A DNA stretch of 24,318 nt from a virus (Duplodnaviria > Heunggongvirae > Uroviricota > Caudoviricetes), in the IMG/VR virus record IMGVR_UViG_2740892258_000019. One strand, given 5' to 3'. Below, piece by piece: positions 5,135 to 19,555 of this stretch (position 1 is its first letter; every line of letters starts with the position of its first letter). The notes under the pieces were generated by a model. The model was not told the origin of the DNA. It made no database searches and saw only the letters and a program-made list of their open reading frames with translations. The position numbers and the translations under genes were made by a program.

Positions 5135-6250
5135 TTACAGGCAGCGTGCGACAGCAGCCTCATAGCTGATGCCTTCTTTTTTGGACAGGGCCACTGCTTT
5201 CTGATGCAGGGCCAGACGCTCAGGATCGGCTTCCGCAAACTCCGCCACATCCACCTTCACCGTGTCGCCGACACGCTCCTTTGTGGCCTGTTCGGCGAAA
5301 TTCATCACCGGCTCCCCGTCGGAGAGCAATGAACGGAAGGCGGTGGCCAGCGGCGTGCGGCTTTCCCCCTCAGCAAACTCCACCGGCTTGTCGCCACCGG
5401 CGACGGCATCCAGCAGGGCAACCACCACGGAGGAGGCGCGGGGAGCCAGACGCCCCTCTGCGACCAGTTTTTCTGCAAAGGCCACATTGTCCTTATGCAG
5501 TTGCTCCTGTCTGGCCTGTGCATCACGCGCATCGCGATCAGCAGCCTGCTGCTTCAGGCGGCGGTTCTCCTCCTGAAGGGCTTCAATCTCTTCTTTTGTC
5601 ATCGATGATTCCTCGTTACTTGCGGAAGACGGCACCTGGCCTGTCTCACTGAATTGTGCACCTGCTGCATCCTGCGACGGTGCGTCGCGGTACGCCTCTT
5701 CGCGCAGATTGTTGAGCTGCCATTCCGGCAGGACTTTTTCTGCTTCGTCCAGACTGAAGCGGGCGATCAGAAAATCGCGCAGCTTTCCCCACAGGGAGGC
5801 ATTCGTGATGGCCTGCCAGTCGGCGAACTCCACCACACCTTCTTCCTGCTCACTGAAGGACACCTGTTTCAGCCCCTTGACGGAAGGTGGCTGTGCCCCG
5901 AGAAAGCCCACATGGCGCAGGTAGAGCACGCCGGGCTTCGGATTGGACGGTGAATCCGGGAGGTAGAAAGAGGCGGACACTTTTTTGAATCGTCCGTTGG
6001 TGACCATCTCAGCAAACTGCGGGTCCAGCTGGGCAGGCTCTGCCATCAGATCGACGCCGCTGAGCGACAGGGCTTTCACCCAGCCCCACGCCGGGTCTTC
6101 CGTTCTGGGATGACCAATCACGAGTGGTGCTTCATGGACGGACGGGTCATAGGCTTTCACGCAGGCGGCAAGATCGTCTGGCGTGAACGGCAGTTTTTTG
6201 CCGTGCATATCGGTATGAGTACCGGCTTTAAAAATGTGAATGGCTGACAT
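5135..6250 (-). CDS. Mu I-like head maturation protease/scaffold protein
   Basis: 371 aa; N-terminal MSAIHIFKAGTHTDMHGKK...FTPDDL pattern typical of Mu-like prophage I protein; charged coiled-coil scaffold-like C-terminal half. Confidence 0.8.
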   Translation of the reverse strand: MSAIHIFKAGTHTDMHGKKLPFTPDDLAACVKAYDPSVHEAPLVIGHPRTEDPAWGWVKALSLSGVDLMAEPAQLDPQFAEMVTNGRFKKVSASFYLPDSPSNPKPGVLYLRHVGFLGAQPPSVKGLKQVSFSEQEEGVVEFADWQAITNASLWGKLRDFLIARFSLDEAEKVLPEWQLNNLREEAYRDAPSQDAAGAQFSETGQVPSSASNEESSMTKEEIEALQEENRRLKQQAADRDARDAQARQEQLHKDNVAFAEKLVAEGRLAPRASSVVVALLDAVAGGDKPVEFAEGESRTPLATAFRSLLSDGEPVMNFAEQATKERVGDTVKVDVAEFAEADPERLALHQKAVALSKKEGISYEAAVARCL

Positions 6251-7747: not shown

Positions 7748-9245
7748 GCAGACGCCCCCAGATATTTGCCACAAAGAGAATGCGGGCCAGCCGTTCCTGC
7801 AGATCGTCCGTGTTCATCTGAGGGTAGAGCTCCGCCAGTTCGCCCAGCAGCTCAGACGGGTTAACCCCGTTTTCGACCCGCTTAAACAGAGGTGCCAGGA
7901 CGGGTTCCAGCGTGCCATTTAACACACCTCCGTTCATCAGAATGTCCAGCGCGTCGTCAAGCTGCTGCTGAGCCTGAATATCGGCATCAATCGCCTCGGC
8001 AAATGACAGCGGCAGCATGTTCTTCTCGCGTTCTGACGGTGGTGTCTCGTCAATATCGCCGTCCTGCAGCTGGTACTCACGCTTGAAGTATTGCGGGGTC
8101 AGACGCAGACCCGCCCGGGTGAGTTTTTCGTCGCGGGTGGCACGGGTGTCATCAATGGCCTCCTGTTCCCACATGGCCCAGACCGGACACGGCACATCGC
8201 CGAAGTTCAGGGTGACCACCGTTCTGATGACCTGATTCACTGCCGCCTGAATGATGTCCGCATCCGCATCGCGGATATCAGCCGTTACCTCCAGCCCGGC
8301 CTGTGCAGAGGCCTTGTTACTGTTCGCTTCCGTGGTCTGATTCTGACCGAGTAATGCAATGGAGATCTCACTGCGTGACAGCGTGATCAGCTCGCGGAAT
8401 ACCTCGCTGCTGTCCGCCTTGCCATCCGCGGCTTTGAGTTCGATGCTGCTGTCATCGGGGATGGCGGCCACCGCGTCCTCCACCATCTGCTCCATGGAGT
8501 CCAGCAGTTTTTCAATCTCTGCATCATTTGCACCCCTCGGGTGCTTACCGATCACCCATGGGGAGCCAAACTTTTCGGCAAAGCGGAGCCAGAATTTCAT
8601 CCCGCCTTTCTTGAAGGCGACCGGCCAGAAGCACATGGACAGGTCAGGGAAACCGTAAGGATTGTCATACGAGGCATCCTGTGCCGGCACCACGAATTTT
8701 GACGGTGACAGCAGCTCACCCTCCACACCCGCATCACGCGCCCGGAAGCGCAGGCAGTTGTCCGTATCAAACTGAAACCACTCAGGCGGTTTGCCGACAA
8801 TATCCGTCACCGCCCACGCCCTGACCGAACGGCCCCACATGATTTCACAGGGCTGATACCCGTAGAGCACGGCATCGCTCATCTCACCGATGATGCGGGA
8901 CAGATCCAGATCGTCGAGCATGTCGCGGATGAAACGGAAGACCCGGGCAGAAGCGTGACCGCGCTCCAGTCCACGCTCCAGTGATTTGAGCGCTGCTTTA
9001 CGTCTGCGGATACAGCCCCCGACCAGCGGGTCGGTGCGCAGTTCGCGGTAGATACGGATATCCCGTCCCTGAGCCTTGAGAATGGGATCAGGGTTGGGCA
9101 GGTACATTCCCAGAGCGTAAAAGTCGATGGCGCGACTGCGCGAGGCAATCTGCGCGGTCAGTGATGCAATCTGCGCGGTCAGTGATTTTTTGGGTTCGGT
9201 GAACGCCACGAACTCATCGGGTGAAACCCAGATACCTTTTGCCAT
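7728..9245 (-). CDS. portal protein (Mu gp29-like, DUF935 family)
   Basis: 505 aa between terminase and F; ATG overlaps the terminase stop (ATGA); carries a 7-aa tandem repeat SLTAQIA x2. Confidence 0.85.
   Translation of the reverse strand: MAKGIWVSPDEFVAFTEPKKSLTAQIASLTAQIASRSRAIDFYALGMYLPNPDPILKAQGRDIRIYRELRTDPLVGGCIRRRKAALKSLERGLERGHASARVFRFIRDMLDDLDLSRIIGEMSDAVLYGYQPCEIMWGRSVRAWAVTDIVGKPPEWFQFDTDNCLRFRARDAGVEGELLSPSKFVVPAQDASYDNPYGFPDLSMCFWPVAFKKGGMKFWLRFAEKFGSPWVIGKHPRGANDAEIEKLLDSMEQMVEDAVAAIPDDSSIELKAADGKADSSEVFRELITLSRSEISIALLGQNQTTEANSNKASAQAGLEVTADIRDADADIIQAAVNQVIRTVVTLNFGDVPCPVWAMWEQEAIDDTRATRDEKLTRAGLRLTPQYFKREYQLQDGDIDETPPSEREKNMLPLSFAEAIDADIQAQQQLDDALDILMNGGVLNGTLEPVLAPLFKRVENGVNPSELLGELAELYPQMNTDDLQERLARILFVANIWGRLHERDNG
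9145..9186. repeat. perfect 21-bp tandem duplication (2 copies) inside portal gene
   Basis: gcaatctgcgcggtcagtgat at 9145-9165 repeated exactly at 9166-9186. Confidence 0.9.
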
Positions 9246-10258: not shown

Positions 10259-10268
10259 GGTGCTGCTG

Positions 10269-11131: not shown

Positions 11132-11457
11132 TATTGACCTCCGGTATTGCGGTACTGCTGTACCACTTCCAGTTTGTTATAAAGCGCGTCCAGTTTGGCC
11201 TCAATGACTGTCTGGCCACGGATATAATCCTCTCGACGGACATAATTCAGCGGTAAATCCGCTTTAAATCGCATAAATTCTTTTTCCAGCTCGCCCCAGT
11301 TGGAGGCGGATTGTTGCAGGGCCTGTTCAAGGGAGGCGAATCGTGCCGCCTGGCGTTCTTCTGTTTTACTGAACAACCATTTGGCGAGCCCTCCCACAAA
11401 CCCCATGAAGGTGAGCAGAAAACTCACCACCGTCCAGAATTCAACCTGCAGTGTCAT
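11131..11457 (-). CDS. Mu gp25-like protein with N-terminal transmembrane segment
   Basis: 108 aa; hydrophobic N-terminus (WTVVSFLLTFMGFVGGL) then coiled-coil-like region. Confidence 0.5.
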   Translation of the reverse strand: MTLQVEFWTVVSFLLTFMGFVGGLAKWLFSKTEERQAARFASLEQALQQSASNWGELEKEFMRFKADLPLNYVRREDYIRGQTVIEAKLDALYNKLEVVQQYRNTGGQ

Positions 11458-12104
11458 TTCTGTAATCCTTCCCGTTCATCCAGTAACGCGTTTATCTGGT
11501 TCCGCCAGCGACGACATTGTCCTGCGTTGTCGATGATGTTGGCGAGAACGTCACGCTGGGAGACACCCGAATCGCGTAACCGGGTGTCAGTGGTTTCAGG
11601 TTGCCCGGTCGCTGTGCCAGAGCGGGTGCCAGCGGCGGCAACTGAGTCTGAATGACCGGTGTCGACGGATGCGTTGTCATATCCGAGTGCGGCGTTGTAC
11701 TGGCGCACGAAACCGCGAGTAAACACGCACTCAATGGGATGGCTCTTACCTTTTTCATCAATCCAGCGCTGTGTGACATCGTTAATTTGCCCCTGTAGTT
11801 GTTTATTCCGGCTCTCCAGTTGAGCAATCTGCTCAAGATAACCGGCTTCAGCCCGCTGCCCGGCGGCCACCTGCTCCTGATACCGTCTGGCCCAGGCCCG
11901 CAGCGCAGCATTCTCAAGCGTTGCCTGCTCCGTTTTGTACGTGTCGAACGCTGACTGCAACTGACTGAGCGCGGTATCACCGTCACGCTTTGCAGAGTCA
12001 TGACCACTTCTGTATCCCATGGCATACAGGCCGACCAGAAAGGCATTGATAAGAATGGCCAGCAGAATGCCGCGCCACGGCAGCTTTTTAACCAGATGCC
12101 ACAC
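11454..12104 (-). CDS. i-spanin (Rz-like) lysis protein
   Basis: Start re-chosen at GTG preceded by GGGGAGG; N-terminal TM helix (ILLAILINAFLVGLYAM) then coiled-coil periplasmic domain; follows endolysin. Confidence 0.6.
   Translation of the reverse strand: MWHLVKKLPWRGILLAILINAFLVGLYAMGYRSGHDSAKRDGDTALSQLQSAFDTYKTEQATLENAALRAWARRYQEQVAAGQRAEAGYLEQIAQLESRNKQLQGQINDVTQRWIDEKGKSHPIECVFTRGFVRQYNAALGYDNASVDTGHSDSVAAAGTRSGTATGQPETTDTRLRDSGVSQRDVLANIIDNAGQCRRWRNQINALLDEREGLQK
11492..11758 (-). CDS. candidate o-spanin (Rz1-like) embedded in alternate frame of i-spanin gene
   Basis: 88-aa Pro-rich ORF beginning MKKVRAIPLSACLLAVSCAS (signal plus near-lipobox Cys), wholly inside the i-spanin gene. 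Confidence 0.4.
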   Translation of the reverse strand: MKKVRAIPLSACLLAVSCASTTPHSDMTTHPSTPVIQTQLPPLAPALAQRPGNLKPLTPGYAIRVSPSVTFSPTSSTTQDNVVAGGTR

Positions 12105-12603
12105 AACTGCTGCCTCCCCATGTGAGATATCGCGGTGCCAGTTCGCGCAGGATGCGCTGCGGATAATGGCGGTTCTCCCGCCAGCTGGCCGCATTGCGTC
12201 CGGCATTCACCGTGGCGACATGTCCGAACCAGCGGGTGCTGTCCAGCCCCTGCTGCGAGGCCAGCCGTTTGTCCCGCTGTACCCAGCCCAGACCACCGTT
12301 ATAGCCTGACAGCGTCATGGCCATACGCTCGCAGTCACTGGCGGCGCTGACGCGTTGCCACAGCCAGCGGTCATAGCTGACCAGCGCCCGGATGGCCCAC
12401 GCCGGATTAAACGGTTCACGGCTGTTAAGCCCCGGCATCAGCTGACTTATCCAGTCAGCGGTGGTGGGCATAAACTGCGCCAGTCCCTGAGCGCCAGCCG
12501 GCGAGACCGCATCAGGTCGCCAGCCGCTTTCCTGATGCAGCTGCGCGGCGAAGTCGGCCACCGGCGCAGACAGTCCCCATTCAAGCCGGGCATTACGGAT
12601 CAC
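12088..12603 (-). CDS. endolysin catalytic portion (lytic transglycosylase, SLT-like motifs HQESGW / GLAQFMP / YNGG); gene split by upstream 56-bp duplication
   Basis: 171-aa ORF with only a GTG start; reading frame continues upstream into duplicated sequence until a stop created by the duplication. Confidence 0.65.
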   Translation of the reverse strand: MIRNARLEWGLSAPVADFAAQLHQESGWRPDAVSPAGAQGLAQFMPTTADWISQLMPGLNSREPFNPAWAIRALVSYDRWLWQRVSAASDCERMAMTLSGYNGGLGWVQRDKRLASQQGLDSTRWFGHVATVNAGRNAASWRENRHYPQRILRELAPRYLTWGGSSCVASG

Positions 12604-12708
12604 ATCATCGCGATACTGCAGCGCAACCTGCGGAGGCTGCGCTGCGCATGCCGGATCACATCATCGCGATACTGCAGCGCAACCTGCGGAGGCTGCGCTG
12701 CGCATGCC
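12597..12708. repeat. perfect 56-bp tandem duplication (2 copies) at the junction of two endolysin ORF fragments
   Basis: ggatcacatcatcgcgatactgcagcgcaacctgcggaggctgcgctgcgcatgcc at 12597-12652 repeated exactly at 12653-12708. Confidence 0.9.
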
Positions 12709-12884
12709 TGGCTGAAAAAGCCGCCACACCAGAGCAACATTGCGACAAAGAATACCCATGCCATATGAACCAGAAAGGTCCCGGCGCGGACTGACAGGCG
12801 TTCGGTTCTGATGAAGACCCGAAAGGCTTCGAAAGCCAGTTTCAGGGACATGCATACAATCCAGGTGATCTGCGGCCAGTTCAT
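12600..12884 (-). CDS. endolysin N-terminal signal-anchor fragment (frameshifted by 56-bp duplication)
   Basis: 94-aa ORF with hydrophobic MAWVFFVAMLLWCGGFF segment; its ...QPPQVALQYRDDVIR matches the in-frame upstream extension of the catalytic ORF. Confidence 0.45.
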   Translation of the reverse strand: MNWPQITWIVCMSLKLAFEAFRVFIRTERLSVRAGTFLVHMAWVFFVAMLLWCGGFFSQACAAQPPQVALQYRDDVIRHAQRSLRRLRCSIAMM

Positions 12885-12886
12885 GA

Positions 12887-13237
12887 TTAAAGCCCCATCG
12901 CAACAGCCAGACAGACAGCTGCAACAATCAGTGCACGGCGGATTAACGCAGCAGAAAATACAAGGTGAAGGCCGGTCTGCACAGGGAAACGCCCTTCAGC
13001 CATCAGCCTGTCTTCATGTTTCAGGTACTGACCGGGACGGGCTTTGGGGAAGAGCGAACGGTCAAGCCAGTACCCCAGCACTGCTGCCAGCGTGATGAGT
13101 GCCAGCTTGTAGATCACAACAGGCAACTGCTGTGGCGAGACCAGAGCGATGATGCCCAGCAACAGCACTGAGGTCAGCAGCCAGCCGCTGAGGCGAGGTT
13201 TTTTAACAGGGGGAATGAATTTTTTCAGGTTTTTCAT
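12887..13237 (-). CDS. holin-like membrane protein (first gene of late/lysis operon)
   Basis: Start re-chosen at ATG preceded by GAGGAG; predicted multi-pass membrane protein directly upstream of endolysin. Confidence 0.5.
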   Translation of the reverse strand: MKNLKKFIPPVKKPRLSGWLLTSVLLLGIIALVSPQQLPVVIYKLALITLAAVLGYWLDRSLFPKARPGQYLKHEDRLMAEGRFPVQTGLHLVFSAALIRRALIVAAVCLAVAMGL

Positions 13238-13484: not shown

Positions 13485-14255
13485 ATGAAAATGCAGACAT
13501 TACCCATCGTTCCATGGATTGGTGGCAAACGCCGCCTTGCAAAACACATCCTGCCGCTGTTTCCGGCGCATGAATGTTATGTGGAGCCGTTTTGTGGGGC
13601 AGCAGCGCTCTATTTTCTTAAGGTACCCGGCAAGATCGAAGTCATTAATGATATCAACGGTGAGCTGGTGAACCTGTATCGGGTGGTAAAACATCATCTG
13701 GAAGAATTTGTACGCCAGTTCAAATGGGCGCTGGTCAGCCGGCAGATCTACAAATGGCTGCAGATCACCCCGGAAGAAACACTGACGGATATCCAGCGTG
13801 CAGCACGGTTCTACTACCTTCAGAAGCAGGCGTTTGGGGGCAAGGTGGCGGAGCACAGCTTTGGTACCTCCACCATATCCCCGCCACGCTTCAACCTGCT
13901 GCGTATTGAAGAAGAACTGTCAGCGGCACACCTGCGGCTTTCCAGAACGGTCATAGAACACATGGACTGGCAACAGTGCATAGAACGATATGATCGCCCG
14001 CATACGTTGTTCTACTGTGACCCTCCATACTGGGGAACGGAAGGTTATGGTGTGGAGTTCGGACTAGAAAATTATGATCATATGGCAGATTTAGCACGCA
14101 GGATCAAAGGGAAGATGATTATATCGGTGAACGATATCCCGGAAATGCGGCAGGCATTCAACGGTCTAAATATTCAGTCGGTTGATATCAGCTACAACCT
14201 CAAGATCACTGGCAAATCCAGTCGCAAGAAGGAACTCATTATCCTCAACTTTTGA
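13485..14255 (+). CDS. Dam-family N6-adenine DNA methyltransferase (orphan)
   Basis: 256 aa with N-terminal PWIGGKRRL (AdoMet motif) and catalytic DPPY motif (FYCDPPYWG); no adjacent nuclease-like gene recognised. Confidence 0.85.
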   Translation: MKMQTLPIVPWIGGKRRLAKHILPLFPAHECYVEPFCGAAALYFLKVPGKIEVINDINGELVNLYRVVKHHLEEFVRQFKWALVSRQIYKWLQITPEETLTDIQRAARFYYLQKQAFGGKVAEHSFGTSTISPPRFNLLRIEEELSAAHLRLSRTVIEHMDWQQCIERYDRPHTLFYCDPPYWGTEGYGVEFGLENYDHMADLARRIKGKMIISVNDIPEMRQAFNGLNIQSVDISYNLKITGKSSRKKELIILNF

Positions 14256-15450
14256 CCGAATAGTAAGACTTCATGCAGTGAATCAAGTACTGCATGAAGT
14301 CAAGGGCTGGTTTTGTGTACCAAAAATAAACAGTGATAGCGGTAATAATTCCCATAACTAGAACACCACGTATAATCCAGAACGTACGTTTCTGCGTGTC
14401 TAGTCGCGCAGAAATACTGCTAAATACACCAGCCACGTCATCTTTAATGAAGGAATATTCCTTATTAATCTGTTTTTCTTTGTATTCAATTTCTTCGCCT
14501 AAGGCCTTTATAGATTGCATCTGGTTCGAAAGTGCCAGCCAGATTAACGTTGCAGCAAAAATGCATCCCAGAAGAATTATTGTGTTTGTTATCCCTTGGC
14601 CTGACCATTTCGTAGCCACTTTGAATTGGGTAGCTACGATAACAGAGGCAACAGGAATGCCAAGTATATGGTTCTGGATATCTGAAAACGCTTTGTGGAT
14701 TTTACCCATTTCTTCGACTTTTGCAGCACGCAGTTGATCCATTACTTTGTCATAAGAGAATCCAGAAGAGTAGATACGATACCCTTTCAGAAACTTTTCA
14801 TGCAGACGCTGAATATTGTCCAGTAAATAAGCGAATACTAGAGGTGAATCAATTCCATCACTAACTGCTTGAATACTTTCAATCAGAATATCTAGCTTCT
14901 GATCCTTATGGGTATCATCATTGAAACAAGCTATAAGGTTATCAAGATACTCCCTTTGCAAATTTTGTACATTTTCTGCAGCGAAGTGCGGTAATAGCTT
15001 GATAACTTCTTTTTTCAGAAAAACTAACTGACAAGTTGAGTTATCAAAGTAGGCCGCGGCCTCTTTTAGCAGGTTAACGAACTCGAGAATCTTCCGGTAG
15101 TTGCTGATGAAAACGGGGATATCTTCATCATCATTACGAAATTTTGTTTCTAGGATGAAGTAATTAGCTGGCTCAAGGCACTGATGCTTTGGAGCATTTA
15201 GCAATTTTTCATGGGTGGAAAACACAAGTCCCAGTCCACTCCGTGGTGACGTCACACGTAGGATGATCGTGTTACCTGGAGCGATAGTGCCTGTATCAAT
15301 AGAAAGACCATATTCACGAGGATCATCAAGCAAAGTATCAACCAGATCACAATCGGACTGATCTAAGAGCAACAGCGAACCGACACGAAACCCCTCTTGG
15401 AATTCCATACGACGATACAGAGCTGTCAGCATCTCAAATGAAATCGCCAC
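14245..15450 (-). CDS. 401-aa protein with large cytoplasmic N-domain and two C-terminal transmembrane helices; second gene of repressor-linked cargo pair
   Basis: Low-GC ORF; TM segments ITNTIILLGCIFAATLIWLAL and FWIIRGVLVMGIITAITVYFW; 2-bp gap after upstream gene; no known catalytic motif. Confidence 0.7.
   Translation of the reverse strand: MAISFEMLTALYRRMEFQEGFRVGSLLLLDQSDCDLVDTLLDDPREYGLSIDTGTIAPGNTIILRVTSPRSGLGLVFSTHEKLLNAPKHQCLEPANYFILETKFRNDDEDIPVFISNYRKILEFVNLLKEAAAYFDNSTCQLVFLKKEVIKLLPHFAAENVQNLQREYLDNLIACFNDDTHKDQKLDILIESIQAVSDGIDSPLVFAYLLDNIQRLHEKFLKGYRIYSSGFSYDKVMDQLRAAKVEEMGKIHKAFSDIQNHILGIPVASVIVATQFKVATKWSGQGITNTIILLGCIFAATLIWLALSNQMQSIKALGEEIEYKEKQINKEYSFIKDDVAGVFSSISARLDTQKRTFWIIRGVLVMGIITAITVYFWYTKPALDFMQYLIHCMKSYYSVKS
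14268..14300. terminator. 12-bp perfect inverted repeat hairpin at the convergence of dam and the cargo cassette
   Basis: acttcatgcagt-gaatcaagt-actgcatgaagt; no clear U-tract; lies within the last codons of the minus-strand gene. Confidence 0.35.
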
Positions 15451-15452
15451 GA

Positions 15453-16460
15453 TTAAACCTCAGTCATCCACATTTCCCTAAATTCTTCAGGTACATTACG
15501 TAGGGTGATAATATTTGTTTCCGGATCATAATCAATATAGCCTTCAGTTTTCCCTTCCCGGTCAAACTTAAGTTCCCAATATTTAGACTTGCCTTTAAAA
15601 GATACCAGAGCCCGAATGACTCGACCATCAGGAACGAAGCCATCCGATAACTCCAACTCTTCAGCAGCAAGTTTACCAGATAACTCCTCGGGAGCCTGGG
15701 GCCAAATGGCATTAACAAGGGTTTCAAGACTAAGTGGTTCACCAGCCTTACTTAGTGCATGTAAGTGTTCAAACGCACTCTTAAGAAATGCATCTTTTTC
15801 AGCGCCGTCAAGTCCTTTCTCTGCCGCAAATGCTTTTAAAACGTCACGTAACTTTTCAGACTCTCGTTTGGCGATTAAGACATCATTACAGCCTAGGAAC
15901 TGTTTAAAATAGTTTGAAACATTACCTTGCCCCTTAAGAAAACTGATATAGCGCTCTGCGCCACTTTCCCACGCGGTTAAGTCAATGCGCCCAGCCATAC
16001 GCAGCTTAGCAATATCAAGATAGGTACTATCTTGGATGTTAAAATCATCTGTGACAGTGGACCCAATGGTAGCGCTTACAATAGCTATCAACAGGTGTTC
16101 ATTGTGTCCTATCACGATATTTGCAAAAAGAACATAACCACCAGTAGCCATGTTTTCTCGCTGAGAACGTTCCGTCAGGTGATGCATCATTCGGCAGGAA
16201 CTTTGGTAGAAATCATCAACACCTTCGAGAAAGTCCCCAGCCATTCGTTCCATAGGATAGTTATCCGTATCGCCTTCAAAATAGCCATAACCTTTACCTG
16301 TGCGTCCTGCATATTTTGCACAAATATCGTTTATAAGGCGCTGAGAGGCTTCAGTAACTAGACCTTCTTCAGGACTCAATCTCTCAGAAGCGTCTCCATT
16401 TTGTTGTTTGTCTAAAATGTGAACTACAACGTGTTTAACTTCAATGGTCTGCTCAGACAT
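15453..16460 (-). CDS. NdpA/YejK-like nucleoid-associated protein family (NA37-like) homolog; first gene of cargo pair
   Basis: 335 aa (same length as E. coli YejK); N-terminal KHVVVHIL, GKGYGYF, central GGYVLF, IDLTAWE...YISFLKG and C-terminal YDPETNIITL pattern match my recollection of the NdpA family; SD AAGGTGGA upstream. Confidence 0.6.
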   Translation of the reverse strand: MSEQTIEVKHVVVHILDKQQNGDASERLSPEEGLVTEASQRLINDICAKYAGRTGKGYGYFEGDTDNYPMERMAGDFLEGVDDFYQSSCRMMHHLTERSQRENMATGGYVLFANIVIGHNEHLLIAIVSATIGSTVTDDFNIQDSTYLDIAKLRMAGRIDLTAWESGAERYISFLKGQGNVSNYFKQFLGCNDVLIAKRESEKLRDVLKAFAAEKGLDGAEKDAFLKSAFEHLHALSKAGEPLSLETLVNAIWPQAPEELSGKLAAEELELSDGFVPDGRVIRALVSFKGKSKYWELKFDREGKTEGYIDYDPETNIITLRNVPEEFREMWMTEV

Positions 16461-17251: not shown

Positions 17252-18363
17252 ATAAACCAAATACATCAAGCTCAGGTATCCGTATTTTGCGCGTTCTTAA
17301 GGCCTTACGTGGCCACGCTTTGAACGGTGTTTCTAACGGGGAACTAGCGGTTGCACTGCACGAATCACCGGCAAACATCAACGGCAGATTGATGCCTCGC
17401 TCTGCACGCTTTACTACCTGAGCAATGGACACAAAGGGCTGCAGGTGATGGACAGCGCGAAATTCTACAAGAACAAGCCCGCTAACCTTGCCCGTATCGC
17501 CAGTGACCGCGTGTGGAGTTATGAGATTACCGACCATGCCAGCGGCTGGATTTACGTTGAGTATGTGACGGGTGCGGAATCCGGTGAGAACCTGTGTTCT
17601 GTGCTTATCAACGCCATGCAGGAGCGTGGCGGCGCAGACGTGCTGCACGGCGTGCCAAAAATACTCTATCTCGACCCCGGCTCGGCAAACACCGCGGGTA
17701 TGACGAAAAACATGTGCCGCTCACTGGGCATTGACCTGATAGCGCACAAGCCGCATAACGCCCGCGCCACCGGACAGGTGGAAAAGGCGCGGGACATTAT
17801 CGAACGCAAGCTGGAGCCGGGTCTGAAGTTCCGGCCGGTTCACAGTCTGGAAGAACTCAACGCGCTGGCCGCGAAATGGCGCAGCCACTTTAACGCCACG
17901 GCTGTTCACAGCCGCCACGGTAAAACCCGCACGGATATCTGGCTGAAGATTACTGCTGAGCAGCTGAAAAAAGCGCCTTCCGTTGAGGTATGTGGTTACC
18001 GGTACAGACAACGCCGCAGATGCAGCCGCCGCACGCAAGGCGAAGGCGCTGCCGTTCGGCGGGCGGCTTGACCCGTATAAACATATCGACGACACCACAC
18101 TTCCGGCCTATATGCCGAAGCGTGGTCAGGCCTCTGACGTACGCGGGCCGCGCACTGAACAACGTCCCATGACTCATGTGGAGGCCGCGAAAGCCCTGCG
18201 CGATAAGTTCAGCGCCGACGGCCTTACCTGGACGCCGGAACATTACCGCCAGTTAACGGCACAGTACCCGGACGGCGTACCGGAAGCCGCACTGGATGAA
18301 GTCATGGCCACGCTGACCACACCGGCCAGCAGCAGTGTTATCAGCATTGTTAACGGCAACTGA
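17248..18363 (+). pseudogene. Mu-type DDE transposase A, disrupted: 57-codon N-terminal fragment, DDE-core ORF and C-terminal ORF in three different frames
   Basis: Strong SD AAGGAGG + ATG at 17248 but stop after 57 codons; DDE-core motifs restart at 17445 in another frame; frame changes again near 17985-18000; locus codes at most ~370 aa vs ~660 for MuA. Confidence 0.6.
17445..18071 (+). CDS. DDE transposase catalytic-core fragment (rve-like: ITDHAS ... LYLDPGSANT ... GQVEKARD)
   Basis: 208-aa ORF with D, D, E-containing motifs at the spacing expected of Mu-type transposase cores; ends in Arg-rich out-of-frame tail. Confidence 0.5.
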   Translation: MMDSAKFYKNKPANLARIASDRVWSYEITDHASGWIYVEYVTGAESGENLCSVLINAMQERGGADVLHGVPKILYLDPGSANTAGMTKNMCRSLGIDLIAHKPHNARATGQVEKARDIIERKLEPGLKFRPVHSLEELNALAAKWRSHFNATAVHSRHGKTRTDIWLKITAEQLKKAPSVEVCGYRYRQRRRCSRRTQGEGAAVRRAA

Positions 18364-18373
18364 GGAGGGAAAC

Positions 18374-19555
18374 ATGCTGGTACTGAAGCAGCAACTGAAA
18401 GAGGCCCGTATTCCACAGGCGGTGGTGGCGAGAGCTGTCGATGTTTCTGAGGCCACGCTGGCCCAGATTGTGAATCATAACGCGTGGCCCCGCACCAGCC
18501 CCGGAGAAGTGCGCCGGCGTCTTGCGTCCTGGCTGGAAAGTCAGGGGATTGATACAACGAAGAGTTTTGATGCTGTACAGGGCGCGGCCACGCCCCGTAC
18601 AGCGGGTACCACAGATAAAACGAGCCTCAGTGAGGAAGAGAATATGTTACTCAAAAAACAGGTGTTATTTCCAGCAACCAAAAAAGCGTTTGGTCTTTTC
18701 CGTGACCCGTTCGCCGACGAAGCCATGCAGGGTTCTGATGATGTGTTCACCACCCCGGATATTCGCTACGTGCGTGAGGCGTTGTACCAGACAGCCCGTC
18801 ATGGTGGGTTTATGGCCGTCATCGGTGAGTCCGGTGCGGGTAAATCCACGCTGCGCCGCGACCTGACTGAACGTATCAACCGCGAGAATGCGCCGGTAAT
18901 TGTTATCGAGCCATACATCATCGCTATGGAAGACAACGATGTGAAAGGGAAAACCCTGAAGGCAGCAGCGATTGCCGAAGCCATTATCAGTACCATCGCA
19001 CCACTGGAAAGCATCAGACGCAGTCAGGACGCCCGCTTTCGCCAGTTGCATCGCGTCCTGAAAGACAGCAGCCAGGCGGGGTTCAGCCACGTTCTGGTGA
19101 TTGAGGAGGCCCACAGTCTGCCCATTCCGACACTGAAACACCTCAAACGGAAACACCTCAAACGCTTTTTTGAGCTGGAGTCCGGTTTCAAAAAACTGCT
19201 GTCCATCGTGCTGATTGGCCAGCCGGAACTGGCGACAAAACTGTCTGAACGCAATATGGAAGTCCGTGAAGTCGTTCAGCGCTGTGAGGTGGTCGAACTT
19301 CTGCCTCTGGACAATAACCTTGAAGAGTTTCTGACGTTCAAACTGCAACGGGCCGGTAAACAACTGACGGACATTATGGACGCCAGCGCAGTGGATGCCA
19401 TACGTGCCCGCCTGAGCAATCCGGGAAGTCATCGTAAAAATATGGTCAGCCTGCTGTATCCGCTGGCCGTCAGTAACCTGGTAATAGCCGCCATGAATCT
19501 GGCCGCTGAAATCGGGGTTCCACAGGTCAACGCTGACGTTGTCAAAGGGGTTTAA
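18374..19555 (+). CDS. Mu B-like transposition ATPase (AAA+; Walker A GESGAGKST, Walker B VLVIEEAH)
   Basis: Start at ATG after GAGGAGGG; 393 aa; contains 5-aa tandem repeat KHLKR x2. Confidence 0.8.
   Translation: MLVLKQQLKEARIPQAVVARAVDVSEATLAQIVNHNAWPRTSPGEVRRRLASWLESQGIDTTKSFDAVQGAATPRTAGTTDKTSLSEEENMLLKKQVLFPATKKAFGLFRDPFADEAMQGSDDVFTTPDIRYVREALYQTARHGGFMAVIGESGAGKSTLRRDLTERINRENAPVIVIEPYIIAMEDNDVKGKTLKAAAIAEAIISTIAPLESIRRSQDARFRQLHRVLKDSSQAGFSHVLVIEEAHSLPIPTLKHLKRKHLKRFFELESGFKKLLSIVLIGQPELATKLSERNMEVREVVQRCEVVELLPLDNNLEEFLTFKLQRAGKQLTDIMDASAVDAIRARLSNPGSHRKNMVSLLYPLAVSNLVIAAMNLAAEIGVPQVNADVVKGV
19135..19164. repeat. perfect 15-bp tandem duplication (2 copies), in frame, inside B gene
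   Basis: gaaacacctcaaacg at 19135-19149 repeated exactly at 19150-19164. Confidence 0.9.

Follow-up and report, generated by a model that had tools for sequence, protein, structure and literature searches.

The endolysin gene of a BcepMu-like prophage in the draft genome of E. coli K1 strain A192PP is split in two by a perfect 56-bp tandem duplication. Judging from the pattern of differences, we consider it very probable that this duplication is a local misassembly at scaffold or contig joins of the draft and not a mutation of the bacterium. We favour an artefact because a single draft contig carries seven blunt structural differences and no substitutions, because one of these differences lies in a host gene and because the 56-bp duplication was missing from every other assembly we searched. 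The underlying gene is an ordinary, already known BcepMu-type SLT endolysin. The window refers here to the whole stretch of DNA analysed (24,318 nucleotides), which corresponds to positions 60-24377 of contig CVOH01000150.1 (57,681 bp) of assembly GCA_001245225.1. The positions of all features in the window are given in Table 1.

Table 1. Position, strand and description of the features discussed in the text (window coordinates)
Feature	Position	Strand	Description
21-bp tandem duplication	9145..9186	-	Perfect; portal gene; in frame, +7 aa (505 vs 498 aa)
289-bp deletion junction	10262..10263	-	Blunt; 5' part of large terminase gene lost, product 337 aa
Rz-like inner-membrane spanin	11454..12104	-	216 aa; overlaps end of endolysin gene; phrog_1403
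Candidate Rz1 outer-membrane spanin	11492..11758	-	88 aa; embedded in Rz in another frame; sequence only
C-terminal endolysin fragment	12088..12603	-	171 aa; GTG start
56-bp unit, copy 2 in gene direction	12597..12652	-	Gene nt 233-288; extra compared with all relatives
N-terminal endolysin fragment	12600..12884	-	94 aa; 78 native plus 16 out-of-frame residues
56-bp unit, copy 1 in gene direction	12653..12708	-	Gene nt 177-232
Holin	12887..13237	-	116 aa; directly upstream of endolysin; PF13272 Holin_2-3; phrog_1528
Dam-type DNA adenine methylase	13485-14255	+	Cargo block
401-aa protein	14245-15450	-	C-terminal membrane segments; weak match to Kiwa defence protein KwaA (E = 8e-5)
NA37 nucleoid-associated protein	15453-16460	-	Cargo block; PF04245
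1568-bp deletion junction	17382..17383	+	Blunt
320-bp deletion junction	17993..17994	+	Blunt; inside transposase gene
15-bp tandem duplication	19135..19164	+	Perfect; MuB-like AAA ATPase gene; in frame, +5 aa (393 vs 388 aa)

Structure of the split endolysin gene

A first-pass annotation of this DNA had described two perfect tandem copies of a 56-bp unit, and both copies are present. Tandem Repeats Finder reported a period of 56, 2.0 copies and 100% matches (score 226) for positions 12596-12708. Direct comparison of the sequence with itself at this period gave an identity over exactly 113 nt, which equals 2 x 56 + 1 and thus corresponds to a junction microhomology of 1 nt. The copy boundaries can be written in two ways (12596-12651/12652-12707 or 12597-12652/12653-12708), and the novel junction created by the duplication reads ...GCGCATGC followed directly by CGGATCAC.... 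A perfect 56-nt tandem repeat cannot be considered a chance product of 24 kb of sequence.

Since 56 is not a multiple of 3, the duplication shifts the reading frame and, as had been claimed, the open reading frame falls apart into a membrane-anchor fragment and an SLT-domain fragment. In the N-terminal fragment the out-of-frame residues read HAQRSLRRLRCSIAMM and end at a TGA stop (12602-12600), and the hydrophobic signal-anchor (approximately residues 35-63) is located within the native part. Gene callers start this fragment at a later ATG, which yields 83 aa; this version is on record, whereas an exact-protein look-up of the 94-aa open reading frame returned no record. The GTG of the C-terminal fragment is the native Val76 codon and overlaps the stop codon of the upstream reading frame as GTGA. 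This fragment holds the entire SLT domain together with the catalytic Glu of the QES motif (residue 100 of the intact protein). It had been remarked that the downstream fragment has only a GTG start and no obvious Shine-Dalgarno sequence. The lack of an obvious Shine-Dalgarno sequence stands, but the overlap of the GTG with the upstream stop, which represents a termination-reinitiation arrangement, had been overlooked. The duplication is situated between the export segment and the catalytic domain and, if it were real, the predicted outcome would be a membrane peptide plus an SLT domain without a route to the periplasm. A lysis-defective prophage had been proposed on these grounds. However, if the deposited sequence were real, this prophage would also be dead for other reasons, because its transposase and its large terminase are truncated.

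When one copy of the 56-bp unit was removed in silico, a single 246-aa open reading frame running from 12884 to 12088 was restored, and this is the endolysin found intact in relatives. The restored protein is identical to WP_015365652.1, which carries the name 'transglycosylase SLT domain-containing protein' in the closest relatives and is annotated at the endolysin locus of GIMC1410, N61, KE50 and M-17. Pfam assigned residues 97-193 to the SLT family (PF01464) with an E-value of 1.3e-14 and 54.2 bits, which is above the gathering score of 21.3, and the comparison with PHROG 669 'endolysin' (phrog_669) gave 8.9e-69. Among the family 1 lytic transglycosylases, E. coli Slt70 (PDB 1QSA/1SLY) aligned to the restored protein over residues 85-184 (Slt70 463-560). 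Here, the 'HQESGWRP' motif with Glu at residue 100 was aligned with 'RQESAWNP' of Slt70, the Glu of which is the catalytic Glu478. The two enzymes differ in their architecture: Slt70 is a 70-kDa periplasmic superhelical protein, whereas the window enzyme is a small single-domain phage protein with an N-terminal membrane anchor.

The hydrophobic segment of the restored protein is preceded by Arg residues, reaches Kyte-Doolittle values of up to 1.92 and involves a Gly-Gly pair (55-56) and a possible A-x-A site (A-C-A followed by A). This stretch is a putative signal-anchor or SAR-like segment through which an SLT-family lytic transglycosylase domain would be exported. The sequence would be compatible with a releasable SAR domain, with a stable anchor and with a cleaved signal peptide. 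Thus, the anatomy proposed in the first-pass annotation, a signal-anchor N-terminus fused to an SLT-type lytic transglycosylase, was right, as the PF01464 match and the hydrophobic segment indicate. As in the SAR endolysins (P1 Lyz, phage 21 R21, SLT-type), the catalytic domain of the window endolysin comes directly after an N-terminal hydrophobic segment, and the enzyme is likewise paired with a small holin. One of its distant matches carries the annotation 'SAR endolysin transglycosylase'. BcepMu-type endolysins reportedly have SAR status; our literature search found no support for this assignment.

The 'lytic murein transglycosylase' of the Bcepmuvirus Escherichia phage PhiKM (XRL29434.1) shares 96.7% identity with the restored window protein. 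In PhiKM and in the E. coli prophages, the endolysin gene has the same neighbourhood as in the window, which consists of a holin, the SLT endolysin and an Rz-like spanin. The window assembly differs from these BcepMu-like endolysins in that it alone carries the 56-bp duplication and the split into the 83/94-aa and 171-aa reading frames.

The export segment was strongly divergent (window 12740-12884, residues ~8-48) when the 246-aa and 242-aa endolysin alleles of E. coli prophages were compared, and from residue ~49 (LLWCGGFFSQACAAQ...) onwards the two alleles were nearly identical. In this alignment, residue ~49 looks like a sharp mosaic boundary within the gene.

Companion differences on the source contig

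The locus was present in 636 of 5426 complete E. coli genomes. In all 30 of the matches listed out of these 636, the alignment consisted of two overlapping pieces that together spanned ~1241-1245 bp for a query of 1301 bp, from which a single copy of the 56-bp unit can be deduced. A 60-mer across the novel junction had no contiguous match in the complete E. coli genomes carrying the locus (n = 636), and a 38-mer of the junction had no match in IMG/VR, the GTDB representative genomes and the JGI metagenomes. The same three collections contained no match to the junction of the 1568-bp deletion. As positive control we used the native boundary, which was found at 3 loci. The comparison with related endolysin genes, which had been suggested as a check, thus yielded an intact single-copy gene, and homologues with both 56-bp copies were not seen. 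At the protein level, the 83-aa and 171-aa endolysin fragments, the portal protein extended by 7 aa and the MuB-like protein extended by 5 aa occurred on CVOH01000150.1 only, among 153 billion indexed gene positions. None of the other genomes searched was found to carry any of the lesions.

Whole-window alignment with the best match, the prophage of GIMC1410 (NZ_CM138826.1, 3669665-3696067), yielded six edits and 0 substitutions over ~24.2 kb. N61 is identical to GIMC1410 over the window region and therefore shows the same six differences. From Table 1, it can be seen that these edits involve three duplications and three deletions. Through the 1568-bp deletion, the DUF3102 gene is lost entirely, a Ner-like HTH gene lacks its 3' end and the transposase gene its 5' end. 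Junction microhomology was quantified for each event and amounted to 0, 1, 1, 0, 1 and 0 nt for the 21-bp duplication, the 289-bp deletion, the 56-bp duplication, the 1568-bp deletion, the 320-bp deletion and the 15-bp duplication, respectively. Microhomologies of 0-1 nt are as expected if the breakpoints were random. The GC content near the breakpoints, which we used as a proxy for coverage dips, was unremarkable and gave no signal.

A seventh event was detected outside the prophage. The host gene ydcJ/hglS carries a blunt 160-bp deletion with 0 nt microhomology at position ~28518 of CVOH01000150.1, 4 kb beyond the prophage, and is split by it into reading frames of 171 and 213 aa. The 5.0 kb of host DNA past the prophage (cybB-ydcA-ydcI-ydcJ-opgD) are otherwise 100% identical to ATCC 11775 and to many ST95 genomes. 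This deletion shows that the indel phenomenon extends beyond the prophage. Taken together, 29.3 kb of CVOH01000150.1 contain seven blunt events and no substitutions, which corresponds to about one event per 4 kb.

When GIMC1410, KE50 and M-17 were compared among themselves, we counted 88-125 substitutions and 0 indels over 26.4 kb, and the comparison with the ETEC L4 isolate gave 226 substitutions and 0 indels over 21.6 collinear kb. According to these alignments, the natural relatives diverge in the opposite way to the window, by substitutions and without indels. We also considered a naturally decaying prophage pseudogene. This candidate was rejected, since the window has 0 substitutions relative to GIMC1410/N61 and shares no lesion with other genomes. 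Similarly, in-silico editing of the window, which might have been suspected from six blunt edits without substitutions, was ruled out, because the variant proteins and both endolysin fragments are present on the public contig.

The CVOH accession is the 2015 draft genome of E. coli K1 strain A192PP. The parent strain A192 was sequenced in the same laboratory with MiSeq Nextera XT 2x151 reads and assembled with Velvet/VelvetOptimiser into 627 contigs with 5,668 CDS. By read mapping, the authors found four SNPs and no structural variants between A192PP and A192, with their own A192 assembly as reference. The implied CDS number of the A192PP draft is ~5,570-5,590 compared with ~5,030 in the related strain IHE3034, and this excess is consistent with hundreds of split genes. 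A192PP has been described as a PKS/colibactin strain; its growth is normal and its virulence is high.

Possible origins of the duplication

Three outcomes had been offered for the repeat in the first-pass annotation: the prophage might be lysis-defective, slippage might have occurred recently, or the assembly might contain an artefact. Our data favour the artefact. Slippage is not favoured, because the homology flanking the 56-bp repeat is 1 nt only; a duplication by replication slippage is expected to have a direct repeat at its boundary, and a microhomology of 1 nt is at chance level.

A misassembly could have come about as follows. The graph of a short-read de Bruijn assembly would be unable to merge contig ends whose overlap is below the k-mer size. 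Once such ends were placed side by side during paired-read scaffolding or gap closing, the overlap would appear twice in the sequence, and perfect duplications of 15, 21 and 56 bp would result. A gap closed at zero length, or a short contig that was dropped, would leave blunt deletions of 160, 289, 320 and 1568 bp. The differences on CVOH01000150.1 resemble known short-read local misassemblies in several respects, although the match is one of pattern only: every repeat is perfect and below the usual k-mer length, the deletions have blunt junctions, point errors are lacking, and several events share one contig while each of them is private to one assembly. Moreover, the errors are not confined to one element, since six of them are located in the prophage and one in ydcJ. 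If the frequency of about one event per 4 kb, which is extrapolated from 7 events in 29.3 kb of one contig, applied at genome scale, it would be incompatible with a viable and virulent strain. What counts against the artefact is the choice of genes. The transposase (hit twice), the large terminase and the endolysin are genes whose loss would lock in a prophage, and selection could also produce such a set of hits.

A rival reading is that the 56-bp duplication is a real and very recent mutation in A192/A192PP, one of several inactivating lesions in a prophage that is being locked in. The cell would then make a signal-anchor peptide and, perhaps via reinitiation at the GTGA, a cytoplasmic SLT domain unable to reach the cell wall, and lysis would fail. 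The deposited sequence encodes exactly such a split, selection against an inducible prophage could plausibly act on the three genes named above, and zero substitutions are compatible with a very recent origin. However, seven blunt events without substitutions in 29 kb are far from the natural pattern of this prophage, which is hundreds of substitutions and no indels, and one event affects an unrelated host gene. For the two duplications that keep the frame of the portal and MuB-like genes, no selective benefit is apparent, and the microhomology expected from slippage is lacking. To our knowledge, E. coli has no efficient blunt end-joining pathway. The four SNPs and the lack of structural variants in the authors' mapping, which is relative to their own A192 assembly, also argue against a real mutation. 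Altogether, we consider this reading unlikely.

It is highly improbable that all seven events are real products of an unusual mutational process, such as frequent double-strand breaks combined with microhomology-independent end-joining in a colibactin-producing K1 strain. Such a process would account for events that are blunt, clustered and free of substitutions in both prophage and host DNA, and the description of A192PP as a PKS/colibactin strain fits it. However, at about one event per 4 kb, more than 1000 genes would be disrupted, essential ones included, and this is at odds with normal growth, high virulence and a distance of 4 SNPs from the parent. In addition, perfect tandem duplications are atypical of end-joining, and we know of no such genome-wide blunt-rearrangement process in E. 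coli. There is likewise only a very slim chance that the seven events represent a real burst of double-strand-break repair without point mutation, in which the split endolysin would be made as an anchor peptide and a GTGA-coupled cytoplasmic SLT domain.

We give almost no credence to a functional split, in which a separate membrane peptide and a lytic domain are produced by design or are rejoined by programmed frameshifting: the stop/start overlap as GTGA speaks for it, but the second 56-bp copy is a perfect repeat without independent information, relatives carry a fused single-copy gene (30 of the 30 listed matches among 636, with the junction 60-mer in none), the split proteins occur on one contig only, and neither a slippery site nor a stimulatory structure was identified; the comparative data effectively refute it.

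If the duplication is a misassembly, its biological significance is small, because a common BcepMu-like prophage of E. coli carries this gene as its standard, already annotated endolysin. In practical terms, the observation calls for caution regarding the quality of the CVOH01 assembly. This draft of A192PP has been used as mapping reference for TraDIS and as comparator proteome, and at about one blunt error per 4 kb, false pseudogenes and split genes would number in the hundreds. In scans for disrupted genes, the first check should be whether a lesion is accompanied by further blunt indels but by no substitutions when near-identical genomes are compared, since this combination points to an artefact.

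The prophage and its lysis cassette

The window had been assigned to a Mu-like prophage, and its gene content confirms that it is a transposable prophage, with a Mu-type portal, gp27, F, Gam, GemA, Mor, an rve transposase and a MuB-like ATPase. More specifically, it is BcepMu-like, as indicated by its gene content and by the classification of the related phage PhiKM in the genus Bcepmuvirus. In A192PP, the prophage interrupts gapC and leaves a truncated product of 169 aa, and no complete genome was found to carry the prophage at this site. In other genomes the prophage occurs at many sites (next to fadM, gspL, malE and tdh), and such varied sites are consistent with random, transposition-type integration. 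GIMC1410 and N61, which are unrelated isolates, share 100% identity over the 26.4-kb prophage region.

The endolysin gene is flanked on the same strand by the holin gene upstream and the spanin gene downstream, so that the order is holin, endolysin, spanin. The 88-aa reading frame inside the Rz gene contains a lipobox-like LSAC/AVSC element (MKKVRAIPLSACLLAVSC) and a proline-rich mature part, and it is likely to be an embedded Rz1 outer-membrane spanin. In RefSeq relatives, this reading frame is not annotated as Rz1. Judged by gene content, the holin, the endolysin and the predicted Rz/Rz1 pair form what is a standard Gram-negative lysis cassette.

The region that separates the lysis genes from the repressor is a cargo block (13485-16460) with the three genes given in Table 1. 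From its predicted products, this block may be a prophage-borne defence or moron module.
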